From: Escherichia coli
GTDB taxonomy: Bacteria; Pseudomonadota; Gammaproteobacteria; Enterobacterales; Enterobacteriaceae
Reading direction: 5' to 3' (one strand)
Length of the DNA stretch: 64,000 bases
Assembly (NCBI RefSeq): GCF_002854065.1
Contig: NZ_CP024147.1
A program made the position numbers and the translations under genes. Positions 10,727 through 42,819 of the stretch are shown here, one piece after another. Position 1 is the first letter of the stretch. The number at the start of each line of letters is the position of its first letter. Below the pieces are notes generated by a model. That model did not search any database. It was given only the letters and a program-made list of their open reading frames with translations, and was not told the origin of the DNA.

Positions 10727-10883
10727 CCCTTACCTTTAAAGCGGATGCTATTTATTTCGTATAAGAGCGCAGTGCTCATGCCGGATGCTGCATGAGCACT
10801 ATATCCTTCCTGAAAATCGCGCAAATTCTATATATTGCAGAGATCATGTAGGCCTGATAAGCGAAGCGCATCAGGCAATGTTA

Positions 10884-10911
10884 CAAAAAAAGCCACGGTA
10901 TAAACCGTGGC
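10884..10911 (-). terminator. rho-independent terminator downstream of allE (minus strand)
   Basis: Hairpin GCCACGGT-ataa-ACCGTGGC followed by U-run when read on minus strand. Confidence 0.5.
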
Positions 10912-10953
10912 AAAATCCAACATAGCTAAAAATAATCAGGCGAGTGGTATGAC

Positions 10954-29953: not shown

Positions 29954-30961
29954 ATGAAGATAATCTGCAGATTATTATTGGCGATGGCATGTTTGTGTCT
30001 GGCAAACATATCCTGGGCTACTGTTTGTGCAAATAGTACTGGCGTAGCAGAAGATGAACACTATGATCTCTCAAATGTCTTTAATAGCACCAATAACCAG
30101 CCAGGGCAGATTGTTGTTTTACCGGAAAAATCCGGCTGGGTAGGTGTGTCAGCAATTTGTCCACCCGGCACGCTGGTGAATTATACATACCGTAGTTATG
30201 TCACTAACTTTATTGTTCAGGAAACTATCGATAATTATAAATATATGCAATTAAATGATTATCTATTAGGTGCGATGAGTCTGGTTGATAGTGTGATGGA
30301 TATTCAATTTCCCCCGCTAAATTATATTCGTATGGGAACAGATCCTAACGTTTCGCAAAACCTTCCGTTCGGGGTGATGGATTCTCGTTTGATATTTCGT
30401 TTAAAGGTTATTCGGCCCTTTATTAACATGGTGGAGATCCCCAGACAGGTGATGTTTACCGTGTATGTGACATCAACGCCTTACGATCCGTTGGTTACAC
30501 CTGTTTATACCATTAGTTTTGGTGGCCGGGTTGAAGTACCGCAAAACTGCGAATTAAATGCCGGGCAGATTGTTGAATTTGATTTTGGTGATATCGGCGC
30601 ATCGTTATTTAGTGCGGCAGGGCCGGGTAATCGACCTGCTGGTGTCATGCCGCAAACCAAGAGCATTGCGGTCAAATGTACGAATGTTGCTGCGCAGGCT
30701 TATTTAACAATGCGTCTGGAAGCCAGTGCCGTTTCTGGTCAGGCGATGGTGTCGGACAATCAGGATTTAGGTTTTATTGTCGCCGATCAGAACGATACGC
30801 CGATCACGCCTAACGATCTCAATAGCGTTATTCCTTTCCGTCTGGATGCAGCTGCGGTAGCCAATGTCACACTTCGCGCCTGGCCTATCAGTATTACCGG
30901 TCAAAAACCGACCGAAGGGCCGTTTAGCGCGCTGGGGTATTTACGCGTCGATTATCAATGA
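29954..30961 (+). CDS. sfmH: fimbrial adhesin-like subunit
   Basis: 335-aa ORF with signal peptide; FimH-like position after usher. Confidence 0.8.
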   Translation: MKIICRLLLAMACLCLANISWATVCANSTGVAEDEHYDLSNVFNSTNNQPGQIVVLPEKSGWVGVSAICPPGTLVNYTYRSYVTNFIVQETIDNYKYMQLNDYLLGAMSLVDSVMDIQFPPLNYIRMGTDPNVSQNLPFGVMDSRLIFRLKVIRPFINMVEIPRQVMFTVYVTSTPYDPLVTPVYTISFGGRVEVPQNCELNAGQIVEFDFGDIGASLFSAAGPGNRPAGVMPQTKSIAVKCTNVAAQAYLTMRLEASAVSGQAMVSDNQDLGFIVADQNDTPITPNDLNSVIPFRLDAAAVANVTLRAWPISITGQKPTEGPFSALGYLRVDYQ

Positions 30962-32364: not shown

Positions 32365-32441
32365 GCGCCCTTAGCTCAGTTGGATAGAGCAACGACCTTC
32401 TAAGTCGTGGGCCGCAGGTTCGAATCCTGCAGGGCGCGCCA
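32365..32441 (+). tRNA. argU: tRNA-Arg (anticodon UCU)
   Basis: 77-nt sequence GCGCCCTTAGCTCAGTTGGATAGAGCAACGACCTTCTAAGTCGTGGGCCGCAGGTTCGAATCCTGCAGGGCGCGCCA with cloverleaf and CCA end. Confidence 0.95.
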
Positions 32442-32456: not shown

Positions 32457-33620
32457 TTACGCCTTCTTTATATCCTCCATAATTCCAGAGTGGGACATAT
32501 TTGGGACATTATCACCAAAAATGTCGTCTATTTTCCTCGCATGCTCTGTCAAATGATTAGGCGCAAGGTGAGCATACCTACGAACCATTTCTATGGACTC
32601 CCATCCGCCCATTTCCTGAAGCACTGATAATGGGACGCCTGACTGAATCAGCCAGCTTGCCCAGGTGTGTCTGAGGTCATGGAAACGGAAATCTTCAATT
32701 CCTGCACGACGACAAGCTGATAGCCATGATGTCTTGCTGTCGATGCGCATCTTCCTGACCGCAGGCGTTGATGTTCCATCTGCTCGCTTAGCCGCCTTGG
32801 TATGTACAAACACCCATTTGTGATGCTTGCCTATTTGATCACGCAACACTTTACAGGCGGTATCGTTCAGCGCCACACCAATGGCGCGGTTTGATTTGCT
32901 CTCTTCTGGATTCACCCAGGCAACTCGTCGCTGCATGTCGATTTGTTGCCATTCCAGATTTATGATGTTCGACTTTCTCAGACCAGTTGCCAGCGCAAAC
33001 TTGACGACAGATTTCAGTGGTTCGGGGCACTCATCAATAAGGCGTTTTGCTTCCTCCTTTTCCAGCCATCTGACTCGCTTGTTTCTGACCGCTGGTATCT
33101 TGATGACAGGCGCTTTTTCCAGCCACTTCCAGTCGCGTTCTGCAGCACGGAGAATGGCCTTTATCATGGCAAGATGCTTTGCCTTTGTCTGAGTTGATAC
33201 TGGCTTTGGTTCATAAACAGGCAGTTCTTTACCTTTCCTGATGGCGGCCTGAACTTTCTGTTTCCATATTTCTTTCGTCTTTCTGTTATGCATTCTGCTT
33301 ACAGCAGAGTAAATCTTTGCCTCCGAGATATCTTTAAGCCTTATACCCTCAAAATGTTCAAGCCAGAACTCAATCCGGCTTTTATCTGAATCGAGAGATT
33401 TTTTATCAGCTTTTTCCTCAAGCCATCTTAGGCAGGCCTCTTCAAAAGTGACATCAGGTAAATCCCCTAGCTTTTCTACTCGCCAGAGTTCTGCTTTTCG
33501 CTTGTCGTGCAACTCCTGAGCTTGCCGCTTGTCCTTTGTGCCAAGAGATTCCTTAATTCGTTTCCCGCCCGGGAGCGAATACGAGGCATACCATATTTCA
33601 TTTCTGCGGAAGAGTGACAT
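32457..33620 (-). CDS. intD: prophage tyrosine integrase
   Basis: 387-aa ORF with C-terminal R..H..R..Y catalytic region ([10 protein letters not shown]); adjacent to tRNA. Confidence 0.9.
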
Positions 33621-33847
33621 TTTCTTTCCTCTGTTATGCCATCACCCGCGCTCACCTGGACAGTATGCAGCGGAGACTGAAGCGCCGCAATGCAGGCTTG
33701 CCGTGTTGTGAGGTAAGGAGATTTTGGCTTGGTTGGATCTTTACGTGTTGCCTGTAGGCGGCCTGTTCGTATCCAGTTGGTGGCGGTTGGTCTGGATATC
33801 TTAAGAAACTGACAGGCCTCATCGAGTGTGAGGCTGTATGATTCCAT
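33476..33847 (-). CDS. excisionase/AlpA-like wHTH protein (possibly degenerate)
   Basis: [34 protein letters not shown] motif; reading frame runs 145 nt into int, suggesting altered 3' end. Confidence 0.5.
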
Positions 33848-34097
33848 GGTTACCTCTGCTTTTTGAACGCATGTCACGTAACTTCTTAATGTGTTCTGCC
33901 GTTTCGATCTCTTCTGCTATCCGATCTGCATCAGCTTTATTCACAGGTTCAAAGTCATGATTAAAGCGGAACATGCTGGCGATACATGTTCTGCCTTTTC
34001 GGATGTAGTGAACTTTGTTGTGGGTAGAACGCAGGATTTTGCAGGGAGTGCCGTGGTGGTCGACGTACCAGGTGTTAGGAAAAATGATTCTGAACAT
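33819..34097 (-). CDS. hypothetical prophage protein
   Basis: 92-aa ORF in early-left operon orientation; no recognisable motif. Confidence 0.35.
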   Translation of the reverse strand: MFRIIFPNTWYVDHHGTPCKILRSTHNKVHYIRKGRTCIASMFRFNHDFEPVNKADADRIAEEIETAEHIKKLRDMRSKSRGNHGIIQPHTR

Positions 34098-34144
34098 TTT
34101 TACACCTCAGTTGGACGATGTTGAAATTTGCTGCTTTGAGGCCA

Positions 34145-34363
34145 TCACAGTCCCCATTGTTTGTTCTTAAGTTCGATCTCCTCCTGGCAACTCGCACAAG
34201 TCCGACAACCCTGAACAGCCAGGCGTCTTCGCTCATCTATCGGATCGCCACACTCACAACAATGAGTTGCGGATACAGTCTGGTAGTTCAGACGACGCAT
34301 TTTTATTGCTGTATTGCGCTGTAATTCTTCGATTTCTGATGCTGAATCAATGATGTCTGCCAT
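34145..34363 (-). CDS. TraR/DksA-family C4 zinc-finger protein
   Basis: 72-aa ORF with CxxC...C..C motif (CCECGDPIDERRR...CRTCASC). Confidence 0.6.
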   Translation of the reverse strand: MADIIDSASEIEELQRNTAIKMRRLNYQTVSATHCCECGDPIDERRRLAVQGCRTCASCQEEIELKNKQWGL

Positions 34364-34590
34364 CTTTCATTAATCCCTGAATTGTTGGTTAATACGCTTG
34401 AGGGTAAATGCGAATAATAAAAAAGGAGCCTGTAGCTCCCTGATGATTTTGCTTTTCATGTTCACCGTTCCTTAAAGACGCCGTTCAACATGCCGATCGC
34501 CATGCTTAAATGAGTCGGTGTGAATCCCATCAGCGTTACCGTTTCGCGGTGCTTCTTTAGTATCTGGCTGAAAGAGGGGGTTATTAAGGC

Positions 34591-34953
34591 GTGAATACCT
34601 ACAGCATCACATTACCCTGGCCTCCGAGCAATAATCGCTATTACCGCCATAATCGCGGGCGCACGCACGTCAGCGCAGAGGGGCAGGCATACCGCGATAA
34701 CGTCGCCCGAATCATTAAAAACGCAATGCTGGATATCGGCCTGGCTATGCCTGTGAAAATCCGCATTGAGTGCCACATGCCGGATCGCCGTCGCCGTGAC
34801 CTGGATAATCTGCAAAAAGCCGCTTTTGACGCACTCACTAAAGCAGGTTTCTGGCTGGATGATGCTCAGGTCGTTGATTACCGCGTTGTGAAGATGCCTG
34901 TTACCAAAGGTGGGAGGCTGGAACTGACCATCACCGAAATGGGGAATGAATGA
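34591..34953 (+). CDS. rusA: Holliday junction resolvase RusA
   Basis: 120-aa ORF recognised as RusA; GTG start with AGAGGGGG SD. Confidence 0.9.
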
Positions 34954-35090
34954 TGTTTGAGTTTTATATGGCAGAACTTCTTCGCCACCGCTGGGGGCAT
35001 CTGCGCTTATATCGTTTCCCCGGTTCTGTTTTGACCGATTACCGAATACTGAAGAGTTACGCCAAAACCCTGACAGGAGCAGGAGTATGA
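34950..35090 (+). CDS. ylcG: small prophage protein
   Basis: 46-aa [19 protein letters not shown] overlapping rusA stop; recognised as YlcG. Confidence 0.5.
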
Positions 35091-35175
35091 AGTCAGAGAT
35101 AACAATCAACTAATACTGTTTTGTTGATTTTTGCTTGTAATTGGCGTTTTGGTCTGATTTTTGTGGAGTAAGTTG

Positions 35176-35559
35176 ATGCGTGATATTCAGATGGTTCTTG
35201 AGCGTTGGGGAGCGTGGGCGGCTAATAATCATGAAGATGTGACCTGGTCGTCCATTGCCGCCGGTTTTAAGGGATTAATTCCTTCAAAAGTAAAATCTCG
35301 CCCGCAATGTTGTGACGATGACGCGATGATCATTTGCGGGTGCATGGCCCGTCTGAAAAAGAACAACAGCGATTTGCACGATTTATTAGTAGATTATTAT
35401 ATAGTCGGTATGACATTCATGTCACTGGCAGGTAAGCATTGCTGCTCTGATGGTTATATCGGGAAAAGGTTACAAAAGGCTGAGGGCATAATTGAAGGGA
35501 TGTTAATGGCATTAGATATCCGGTTAGAGATGGATATCGTTGTTAATAACTCTAATTAA
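35176..35559 (+). CDS. quuD: late gene antiterminator Q
   Basis: 127 aa from [18 protein letters not shown] with zinc-binding cysteines; phage Q family. Confidence 0.85.
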
Positions 35560-35589: not shown

Positions 35590-35740
35590 AATGGGGCGTT
35601 GAAGCGCCCCCAAAAATAAAGGGTAATATATAACAGAAGGTTTGTATAGTTAGAAGCAAGGTTGTGCTTCTAAAGGAAGTGGCTTGAGGGAGCCACTTAT
35701 ATGTTGGGGAGGCAAAGCCTCCCACAACATATCTTTTAGT
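35590..35740. terminator. cluster of four stem-loops between convergent quuD and nmpC
   Basis: GGGGCG-ttgaa-CGCCCC; GAAGCA-aggttg-TGCTTC; AAGTGGCT-tgaggg-AGCCACTT; GTTGGGGAGGC-aaa-GCCTCCCACAAC followed by T-run. Confidence 0.4.
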
Positions 35741-35747
35741 AATCAAA

Positions 35748-36830
35748 TTAGAACTGGTAAACCATACCTACAGCAACGATATCATCGGTAGCAACGCCAG
35801 ATGCTTTCGTGAAATCGCTCTTATCAATCAGGTTGATTTTGTAGTCAACAAAAGTGGACATATTTTTGTTGAAGTAATAGGTTGCACCTACATCAACATA
35901 TTCAACCAGGTCCTGATCACCCCAAACACCCAAGTCTTTTCCTTTAGAATGCAGGTAAGCAACGGATGGACGCAGGCCGAAGTCGAACTGATATTGTGCA
36001 ACAGCTTCGAAGTTTTGTGCTTTGTTGGCAATATGGTTATTACCAAAAACAGTCATGTTCTGGGTTTCAGAATAGGTGGTGGCCAGATAGATGTTGTTCG
36101 CATCATATTTCAGACCAGCTGCCCATACTTCAGCATTTTGACCAGAAGCATTCAGACCGTTGTTACCGTAGATAACCTGATTATTAGTGCGATCAGATTT
36201 AGCATAGGTTGCACCCACGCCGAATCCTTCATACTCATAAGTAGTTGAGAAACCGAAACCATCGCCATTAGCTTCAGTTACTTCATTTCGGTCATTTTTG
36301 CCCTGATACTGAGCTGCAAAGTTCAGGCCATCAACCAGACCAAAGAAGTCGTTGTTACGATAAGTTGCAACACCTGTGGTGCGACCAGTCATGAACACAT
36401 CTGTTTGGGTCCAGGTATCGCCACCGAATTCTGGCAGAACGTCAGTCCACGCACCGATGTCGTATGCTACACCGTAGTTACGGCCGTAATCGATTGAGCC
36501 GTAGTCACCGAATTTCAGGCCAGCGAAGGCAAGACGGGTTTTATCTTTGGAGGAACCTTGAGATTCAGCGCGGTTGCCTTTGAATTCATATTCCCACTGA
36601 CCGAAACCAGTCAGTTGATCGTTGATTTGGGTTTCACCTTTGAAGCCAAGACGGGCATAAGTAGTATCACCATCATCTGCATCATTAGAGGAGAAGTAGT
36701 GCTTAGCATTAACTTTCCCGTACAGATCCAGCTTGTTACTGTCTTTATTATAAATTTCAGCTGCCTGAGCAGACATCGCCATCAGTACTGATGCAGCTAC
36801 AGCAGAAATTGCCACTGTTAATTTTTTCAT
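35748..36830 (-). CDS. nmpC: OmpC/OmpF-family outer membrane porin, intact
   Basis: 360-aa ORF with signal peptide [23 protein letters not shown] and C-terminal ...VYQF; recognised as NmpC. Confidence 0.9.
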
Positions 36831-38866: not shown

Positions 38867-39265
38867 ATGGAATTGGCAAGTGAATTTTCTGGCATGCTTA
38901 AGTCGTCAGGTGTTCGGTCAGCGTTCTTTGTTGAAATGCTGATGCACGGCGGACTTATGGCAACAATGAGACGTGTAATGGAAGACCAGAGAAAAGAACC
39001 TCCTCAGGTATACGTTTTGTCATCGAAGAAAACTGGGCTAACCAAAATTGGGTATTCATCCAACATTCCACAACGCATCAAATCGCTTGGCAACTCTGGA
39101 CCAGACTGCTTGAAGCTTGAGTGCCTGATCCCTGGTGGAAGAGAAACTGAAAACATGCTTCATCGCAAATTTGCCGCAAAGAGAAAGCACGGTGAATGGT
39201 TCGCCCTGTCCAAGGATGACATTGAGGGATTGAAATCTGTAGCGATTACTTCTGATGGCTATTAA
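38867..39265 (+). CDS. T5orf172/GIY-YIG-like domain protein
   Basis: 132-aa ORF; motif VYVL..TGLTKIGYS..RIKSL...HRKF...HGEWFAL; in frame with a 24-codon upstream ORF separated by one TAA. Confidence 0.45.
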   Translation: MELASEFSGMLKSSGVRSAFFVEMLMHGGLMATMRRVMEDQRKEPPQVYVLSSKKTGLTKIGYSSNIPQRIKSLGNSGPDCLKLECLIPGGRETENMLHRKFAAKRKHGEWFALSKDDIEGLKSVAITSDGY

Positions 39266-42234: not shown

Positions 42235-42819
42235 ATGGCATTCAGAATGAGTGAACAACCACGGACCATAAAAATTTATAATCTGCTGGCCGGAACTAAT
42301 GAATTTATTGGTGAAGGTGATGCATATATTCCGCCTCATACAGGTCTGCCAGCAAACAGTACCGATATTGCACCGCCAGATATTCCTGCTGGCTTTGTGG
42401 CTGTTTTCAACAGTGATGAGGCATCGTGGCATCTCGTTGAAGACCATCGGGGTAAAACGGTTTATGACGTAGCGTCAGGGGACGCGTTATTTATTTCTGA
42501 ACTCGGTCCGTTACCGGAAAATGTTACCTGGTTATCGCCGGAAGGGGAGTTTCAGAAGTGGAACGGCACAGCCTGGGTGAAAGATGCAGAAGCAGAAAAA
42601 CTGTTCCGGATCCGGGAGGCGGAAGAAACAAAAAACAGCCTGATGCAGGTAGCCAGTGAGCATATTGCGCCACTTCAGGATGCTGTAGATCTGGAAATCG
42701 CAACGGAGGAAGAAACCTCATTGCTGGAAGCCTGGAAAAAGTATCGGGTGTTGCTGAACCGTGTTGATACATCAACTGCACCTGATATTGAGTGGCCTAC
42801 GAACCCTGTCAGGGAGTAA
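42235..42819 (+). CDS. tfaD: tail fiber assembly protein
   Basis: 194-aa Tfa-family ORF. Confidence 0.8.

Follow-up and report, generated by a model that had tools for sequence, protein, structure and literature searches.

A predicted lambda orf73 ortholog stranded in a DLP12-type defective prophage of Escherichia coli, and most likely silent there

Introduction

Does a small zinc-finger gene in a cryptic prophage provide its Escherichia coli host with a working regulator of RNA polymerase (RNAP), or is it carried along as inert phage DNA? The question is raised by a 72-codon open reading frame in a stretch of 64,000 nucleotides of E. coli DNA (assembly GCF_002854065.1, contig NZ_CP024147.1), which was analysed at its full length and is referred to here as the window. 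An initial annotation had described this reading frame as a TraR/DksA-like zinc-finger gene in the early-left remnant of a prophage, had named the PF01258 profile as a check of the family, and had proposed that the product could affect host physiology if expressed.

Assignment of the reading frame to the TraR branch

The window's list of open reading frames contains an intact, ATG-initiated frame of 72 codons plus stop at positions 34145..34363 on the minus strand. Its product, MADIIDSASEIEELQRNTAIKMRRLNYQTVSATHCCECGDPIDERRRLAVQGCRTCASCQEEIELKNKQWGL, carries exactly the motif HCCECGDPIDERRRLAVQGCRTCASCQ that the initial annotation had quoted as the C4 zinc-finger signature of a 72-residue protein. 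A Pfam profile search matched residues 33-64 to PF01258 (zf-dskA_traR) with 37.3 bits and E=2.8e-9, above the gathering score of 24.9 bits, and a PHROG search matched residues 1-70 to PHROG 54, 'DksA-like zinc-finger protein', with E=3.6e-26. The family match of the product is far beyond chance. Sequence searches of the PDB aligned the entire window protein with the chains of F-plasmid TraR (5w1s and 6n57) at E about 1e-4; the best match was YbiI (2kgo), limited to the zinc-finger segment (residues 31-67, E=1.2e-5).

Among the NCBIfam models, TIGR02419 (C4_traR_proteo) scored the window protein at 53.9 bits, under its cut-off of 59.7, while lambda Orf73 scored 54.7, also under the cut-off, and F TraR 80.5, which passes. 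Because the validated lambda Orf73 itself falls below it, this cut-off is a conservative annotation threshold rather than one that defines the family, and the sub-threshold score was rejected as a case against membership. The cut-off of the TraR equivalog NF010268 was not reached (25.8 against 108 bits), that of the YbiI model NF008243 was far from reached (42.8 against 96 bits), and the DksA-like model of NCBIfam gave no match to the protein at E<=0.01. DksA proper, with about 150 residues, a long N-terminal coiled coil and the ppGpp site-2 residues, is excluded, since the window protein has 72 residues and a single N-terminal helix; members of the TraR branch have about 70-75 residues, with one such helix replacing the DksA coiled coil.

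A BLASTP comparison with lambda Orf73 gave 62 identical residues of 71 aligned (87%; E=3e-47); five of the nine differences lie in the C-terminal helix (E62D, I63L, K66I, N67S and W70R). The dN/dS ratio between the two genes is 0.18, which at the level of sequence indicates purifying selection within the phage family. In lambda the gene lies on the complement of about 30392-30613, between ea22 and orf61, encodes a 73-residue product and is unannotated in NC_001416. This record omits orf73 although the gene has been experimentally characterised; PGAP calls it in a K-12 lambda lysogen, under the name 'TraR/DksA family transcriptional regulator'. The window gene occupies the position of the orf73 orthologous group, flanked by an orf61-like gene on one side and the int-xis end on the other; the t2 region upstream is kept, and the order of the genes around it agrees with that of phage SfI and of strain FG92-1.

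The window protein is 100% identical to SfI_0031 of phage SfI and to RefSeq WP_000763385.1. The same WP_000763385.1 is annotated by PGAP, as 'TraR/DksA family transcriptional regulator', in strain 100416, the closest complete E. coli genome. Many Stx-converting phages carry the 72-residue allele at 93-100% identity, and a tblastn search of phage genomes returned 514 records overall, with SfI at 100% identity and the lambda locus at 87%. From these comparisons the gene at 34145..34363 is assigned as the lambda orf73 ortholog, within the TraR branch of the DksA/TraR family.

A protein that retains the critical residues of TraR

The N-terminus of the window protein, MADIIDSA, contains the DxxDxA motif at D3, D6 and A8. 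All three residues are invariant in an alignment with lambda Orf73 and F TraR, and all of 10 divergent homologs keep D6, while D3 and A8 are nearly invariant in them. The zinc ligands C35-x2-C38-x17-C56-x2-C59 (CxxC-17-CxxC) are invariant in the homolog alignment, and two further cysteines, C36 and C53, stand at the positions of the two extra cysteines of lambda Orf73. R46 and R47 align with R48 and R49 of TraR, R47 being invariant and R46 nearly so in the homologs; in TraR this arginine pair contacts the rim helices and beta'Si3. The window protein retains every residue that is experimentally important in TraR and lambda Orf73.

An AlphaFold2 model of the protein, computed from a 10-sequence alignment, has a mean pLDDT of 77 with weak termini, and comprises a helix at residues 3-27, a zinc knuckle and a second helix at residues 57-70. 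Foldseek placed TraR in its RNAP complex (6n57_M) as the top PDB match of the model, with a probability of 1.00, a TM-score of 0.54 and E=2.6e-3; YbiI and then DksA rank next, and the DksA structures align over the zinc domain and one helix only. Zinc-ribbon motifs are widespread, and the very small size of the protein keeps the Foldseek E-values modest, which would leave room for a generic small zinc-ribbon protein whose function is unrelated to RNA polymerase. However, the protein is homologous to TraR from end to end, in the N-terminal DxxDxA helix as well as in the zinc knuckle, and lambda Orf73, with which it shares 87% identity, has been shown biochemically to bind RNAP, so that we give a generic zinc ribbon almost no credence. 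The family named in the initial annotation holds at the levels of sequence, motif and predicted fold, and can be sharpened to an ortholog of lambda Orf73.

Expected action on RNA polymerase

The activity of lambda Orf73 has been described in detail (Gopalkrishnan et al., mBio 2022, PMC9239242). It competes with DksA for E. coli RNAP, inhibits rrnB P1 in the absence of ppGpp with an IC50 of about 50 nM, also inhibits rpsT P2, and complements a dksA-null strain when induced (PMC9239242). The D3N and D6N variants lose activity, so that D3 and D6 of the DxxDxA motif are required (PMC9239242). Orf73 raises phage yield about 4-fold, and when a defective prophage in single copy expresses it from pL, growth is slowed and plating efficiency falls about 10^4-fold (PMC9239242). 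Host promoters are poorly activated, possibly owing to the two extra cysteines, and disturbed folding caused by these cysteines was raised by the authors as a possibility (PMC9239242). Binding to the RNAP secondary channel, ppGpp-independent inhibition of rrnB P1 and complementation of a dksA null were also shown for four more distant homologs, and homologs with 32-49% identity to TraR are all active (PMC9239242).

By homology, the window protein would occupy the secondary channel of E. coli RNAP without binding DNA and without ppGpp. The N-terminal helix bearing DxxDxA would extend to the active-site region; the globular C4 zinc domain, with its arginine pair, would touch the rim helices and beta'Si3, and the C-terminal helix would touch betaSi1. 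Promoters for rRNA and ribosomal proteins would then be strongly inhibited and the host would grow more slowly, and the protein would probably be a poor activator, as is lambda Orf73, on account of its two extra cysteines. In its native context the gene would belong to the pL/N-dependent early-left genes of the phage and redirect resources of the host in the course of lytic growth. The protein, if made, should thus inhibit rRNA and ribosomal-protein promoters through the secondary channel, a prediction well supported by its close homology to lambda Orf73; given the RNAP binding, the inhibition of rrnB P1 and the slowed growth reported for lambda Orf73, the suggestion that it could affect host physiology if expressed was a reasonable one.

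An intact reading frame could nonetheless encode an impaired protein, in which substitutions in the C-terminal helix, or misfolding promoted by the six cysteines, weaken RNAP binding and leave a decaying relic. Relative to lambda Orf73, residues 62-70 do contain five of the nine substitutions, the authors of the mBio study considered that extra cysteines may disturb folding (PMC9239242), and the pLDDT of the model is only 77, with weak termini. Against this, the same 72-residue allele is found in the complete SfI genome and, at 93-100%, in many Stx-converting phages; because these phages carry it, the allele is the normal one of a large group of intact phage genomes and not a product of decay. 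All of the experimentally critical residues are kept, and far more divergent homologs, 32-49% identical to TraR, are all active (PMC9239242). We regard an impaired protein as very improbable, and a functional Orf73-type inhibitor remains the preferred reading of the coding sequence.

A gene cut off from its native promoter by deletion

The left flank of the prophage consists of the sfm fimbrial genes, fimZ and tRNA-Arg(TCT). This tRNA gene, argU (32365..32441, plus strand), was located by ARAGORN, Rfam and the annotation, and forms the DLP12-type attachment site and left boundary of the prophage. It is followed on the minus strand, in the ORF list and the annotation, by an intD-type tyrosine integrase of 387 residues (32457..33620) and by a xis-like ORF of 133 codons with a Pfam HTH_17 match (33476..33877), which overlaps the 5' end of intD. 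PGAP treats only a 66-bp piece of the xis-like ORF as an HTH pseudogene, and SfI annotates a 116-residue excisionase at this place. Directly downstream of the TraR-type gene, in the same leftward operon, lies a DUF4222 gene of 92 residues (33819..34097, minus strand; PF13973, 69.4 bits; phrog_285; also called by PGAP). The assignment of the TraR-type gene itself (34145..34363, minus strand) draws together Pfam, PHROG, BLASTP, the motif residues and the structural model.

Upstream of the TraR-type gene, PGAP, PHROG and alignment identify the 3' fragment of a 71-residue early-left gene (34462..34563, minus strand; phrog_303), which is intact in strain FG92-1 and has here lost its N-terminal part to a deletion. 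On the identical region of strain 100416, PGAP labels the fragment a 'cell division protein ZapA' pseudogene. The deletion joint falls at about 34560..34564 when the sequence is aligned with FG92-1 and SfI, in both of which the intervening genes are still present. It connects the early-left (exo-xis) module, on its left, with the final bases of ybcO and the region upstream of rusA, on its right; missing between them are exo through N, pL, nutL, the immunity region, the replication genes and most of nin. Past the joint, the first gene on the right is rusA (34591..34953, plus strand; 120 residues; PF05866, 82 bits; annotated), which is divergent from the TraR-type gene. Beyond it follow ylcG, quuD, an nmpC/ompC-like porin gene and essD-rrrD-rzpD, and then a GIY-YIG gene, a terminase pseudogene, tail fragments, appY and ompT.

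The setting is that of a DLP12-type defective prophage at argU without pL, N/nutL, immunity, replication and most morphogenesis genes. The description of the locus as a prophage early-left remnant agrees with these neighbours, from tRNA-Arg(TCT) through intD, the xis-like ORF and DUF4222 to the joint with rusA. Among 5426 complete E. coli genomes, a query spanning the joint is contiguous only in strains 100416 and CUWW06, and the joint is present in one of 80 IMG/VR loci; the occurrence of the remnant in two of the 5426 genomes points to a recent, lineage-specific deletion. Other strains carry different deletion variants of the same prophage.

Several other features of the window were recorded in passing. 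The nmpC/ompC-like porin gene within the prophage is intact (35748..36830, minus strand; 360 residues); its K-12 copy is disrupted by IS5. The GIY-YIG nuclease family ORF (38867..39265, plus strand; 132 residues) comes directly after the essD, rrrD, rzpD lysis cassette. Rfam matches reaching their gathering scores, all on the plus strand, were IS009 at 42578..42776 (229.5 bits), the STnc480 sRNA at 10881..10947 (87.6 bits) and, just above threshold, the ES036/CssrF sRNA at 10813..10855 (38.1 bits).

Prospects of transcription

About 200 bp of DNA upstream of the window gene align with lambda with few mismatches. Within this segment, a terminator scan and RNA folding identified a terminator-like hairpin of eight pairs with a 3-nt loop, followed by a T-run (34419..34441, minus strand), on the gene's own strand and 60 nt upstream of its ATG; the terminator scan itself gave 34441..34423. 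The hairpin sequence is identical in lambda and is kept in essentially all of the 80 related IMG/VR loci. The element is the one that Bloch et al. (PLoS One 2014, PMC4195576) predicted as a terminator, t2, separating orf61 from orf73 in both lambda and phi24B. In lambda, the mRNA levels of orf73, ea22 and ea8.5, downstream of t2, are lower (PMC4195576). The same study lists a BPROM-predicted promoter for orf73, p1, with the -35 element TCATCA and the -10 box TTTTATTAT (34414..34446, minus strand; PMC4195576, Table 3). It overlaps the t2 hairpin, and both elements are intact in the window. Since its spacing is non-canonical, p1 is treated here as unproven, and a consensus scan of the minus strand over 33400-35300 found no sigma70-like site, p1 included.

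The deletion would have left the gene with these roughly 200 bp of lambda-like upstream DNA, containing the t2 hairpin and at most a weak predicted p1. With pL, N and nutL lost to the deletion and a terminator-like hairpin upstream, expression in the remnant is doubtful. From the missing pL and the consensus scan we infer that the window gene is most likely silent or very weakly expressed; as p1 and t2 are both intact, weak autonomous expression from this region may occur.

Transcription entering from farther upstream was also considered. The nmpC/ompC-like porin gene lies on the same strand and is followed at 35610..35593 by a GC-rich terminator-like hairpin, which makes read-through from it unlikely. 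A strong sigma70-like sequence, GTGACA-18-TATAAT, which matches 11 of 12 positions and contains the palindrome TGACATGAATGTCA, lies antisense within quuD (35396..35425, minus strand), about 1 kb upstream of the TraR-type gene, and would fire leftward through ylcG and rusA in the direction of that gene; it is identical in strain 100416 and not in FG92-1. Transcripts from this site would still meet t2, and partial read-through could follow.

Two further elements close to the joint were noted. On the plus strand, a 9/12 promoter-like sequence, TTAATA-18-AATAAT (34389..34418), points toward rusA across the joint and scores no better than shuffled sequences; rusA is normally silent in the DLP12 prophage of K-12. 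On the minus strand, a 29-codon ORF, MKSKIIRELQAPFLLFAFTLKRINQQFRD (34370..34459), runs across the t2 hairpin and stops 6 nt short of the ATG of the TraR-type gene. This ORF is annotated in phage SfI as SfI_0032. A PHROG search with it gave no match and its polymorphisms, five synonymous to ten nonsynonymous, are barely better than those of the other frames; it is not claimed as a gene.

These elements bear on an alternative in which the gene has become a domesticated regulator, a ppGpp-independent, DksA-like brake on ribosome synthesis that would be expressed, perhaps during oxidative stress, either from p1 or from read-through transcripts of the antisense quuD site. Such a role would fit the identity of the intact p1 and t2 to those of lambda and phi24B, the high level of phi24B orf73 mRNA after H2O2 treatment (PMC4195576) and the 11/12 promoter-like site on the same strand (35425..35396). 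Yet p1 is a BPROM prediction with non-canonical spacing that the consensus scan missed, and lambda mRNA falls downstream of t2 (PMC4195576). The effect of lambda Orf73 in a single-copy defective prophage, which is strongly deleterious to plating (PMC9239242), speaks against its retention as a host function.

Occurrence across E. coli genomes

Counted at an identity of at least 90% in 5426 complete E. coli genomes, the 219-bp gene is present in 3298 (about 60%), often in several copies and consistently annotated. The TraR-type gene is already known, already annotated and very common. The argU-intD block was found in 1645 genomes at a coverage of at least 80%, and the int-proximal DUF4222-TraR block in only 933. 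This block is missing from roughly 40% of the intD-bearing genomes, K-12 strains match only the intD part, and some genomes carry yfdT at its position; truncated and nonsense alleles of the TraR-type gene also occur. Such a distribution is the pattern expected of mosaic, decaying prophage DNA and not of a conserved, host-domesticated gene.

Domestication draws some apparent support from the intact ORF and from the predominance of synonymous changes among close alleles in the 80 IMG/VR loci. As these loci were chosen by protein identity, the synonymous excess was rejected as evidence of selection and the dN/dS of 0.18 between the window gene and lambda orf73 was used in its place, and the intact ORF is compatible with, but not evidence for, some selective retention. 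The absence of the block from many intD-bearing genomes, including K-12, argues against domestication, as do the truncated copies in others. Neither the retention counts (933 against 1645) nor the rarity of the exact remnant (2/5426) supports it. We consider a domesticated regulator unlikely. The narrower proposal of a 'stringent mimic', in which the stranded gene is transcribed from p1, for example under oxidative stress, and retained by the host as a ppGpp-independent brake on rRNA synthesis, appears more doubtful again.

Discussion

Taken together, the evidence favours, with a probability of about 0.85, an orf73 ortholog encoding a would-be RNAP inhibitor that was stranded by deletion and persists as a silent or weakly expressed neutral passenger, not as a regulator of its host. 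Because the family, the RNAP-bound structure and the activity of lambda Orf73 are all published, the gene has little importance beyond its correct annotation. If stranded genes of the orf73 type were expressed, from p1 or by read-through, the many E. coli strains with copies in defective prophages would harbour a latent inhibitor of ribosome synthesis, and, given the toxicity of lambda Orf73, growth, persistence or the interplay between prophage and host could then be affected.

The window protein can be set against five known systems. E. coli YbiI (2KGO) is the best PDB sequence match over the zinc-finger segment and stands second in the fold search; it differs in being a chromosomally encoded protein of 88 residues, and the match is limited to residues 31-67. 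With E. coli DksA the window protein shares the PF01258 C4 zinc finger and would share the secondary-channel site on RNAP and the acidic tip residues (PMC9239242); DksA, in contrast, is a protein of about 151 residues with a long coiled coil, and is fully active only with ppGpp. F-plasmid TraR (5W1S, 6N57) is alike in its size, its three-element architecture, the DxxDxA motif, the CxxC-17-CxxC spacing and the equivalents of R48/R49. It is only 31% identical to the window protein, has four cysteines, is encoded in the conjugative transfer operon and activates tra and some host promoters.

Phage SfI encodes the identical protein and has the same downstream DUF4222, xis and int genes and the same type of integration module. 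Its record is a complete genome in which exo, bet, gam, kil and cIII are still present upstream; all of these are deleted in the window. In lambda, ea22 and ea8.5 follow orf73, whereas in the window this place is taken by DUF4222 and an SfI/DLP12-type xis-int pair, and pL, N and nutL have been deleted. The window protein is one residue shorter than lambda Orf73 and carries nine substitutions, mostly in the C-terminal helix. Common to both are the MADIIDSA N-terminus, the six cysteines, of which the two extra ones occupy matching positions, the ERRR segment, the location of the gene within the exo-xis segment of the early-left operon and the t2 hairpin upstream.
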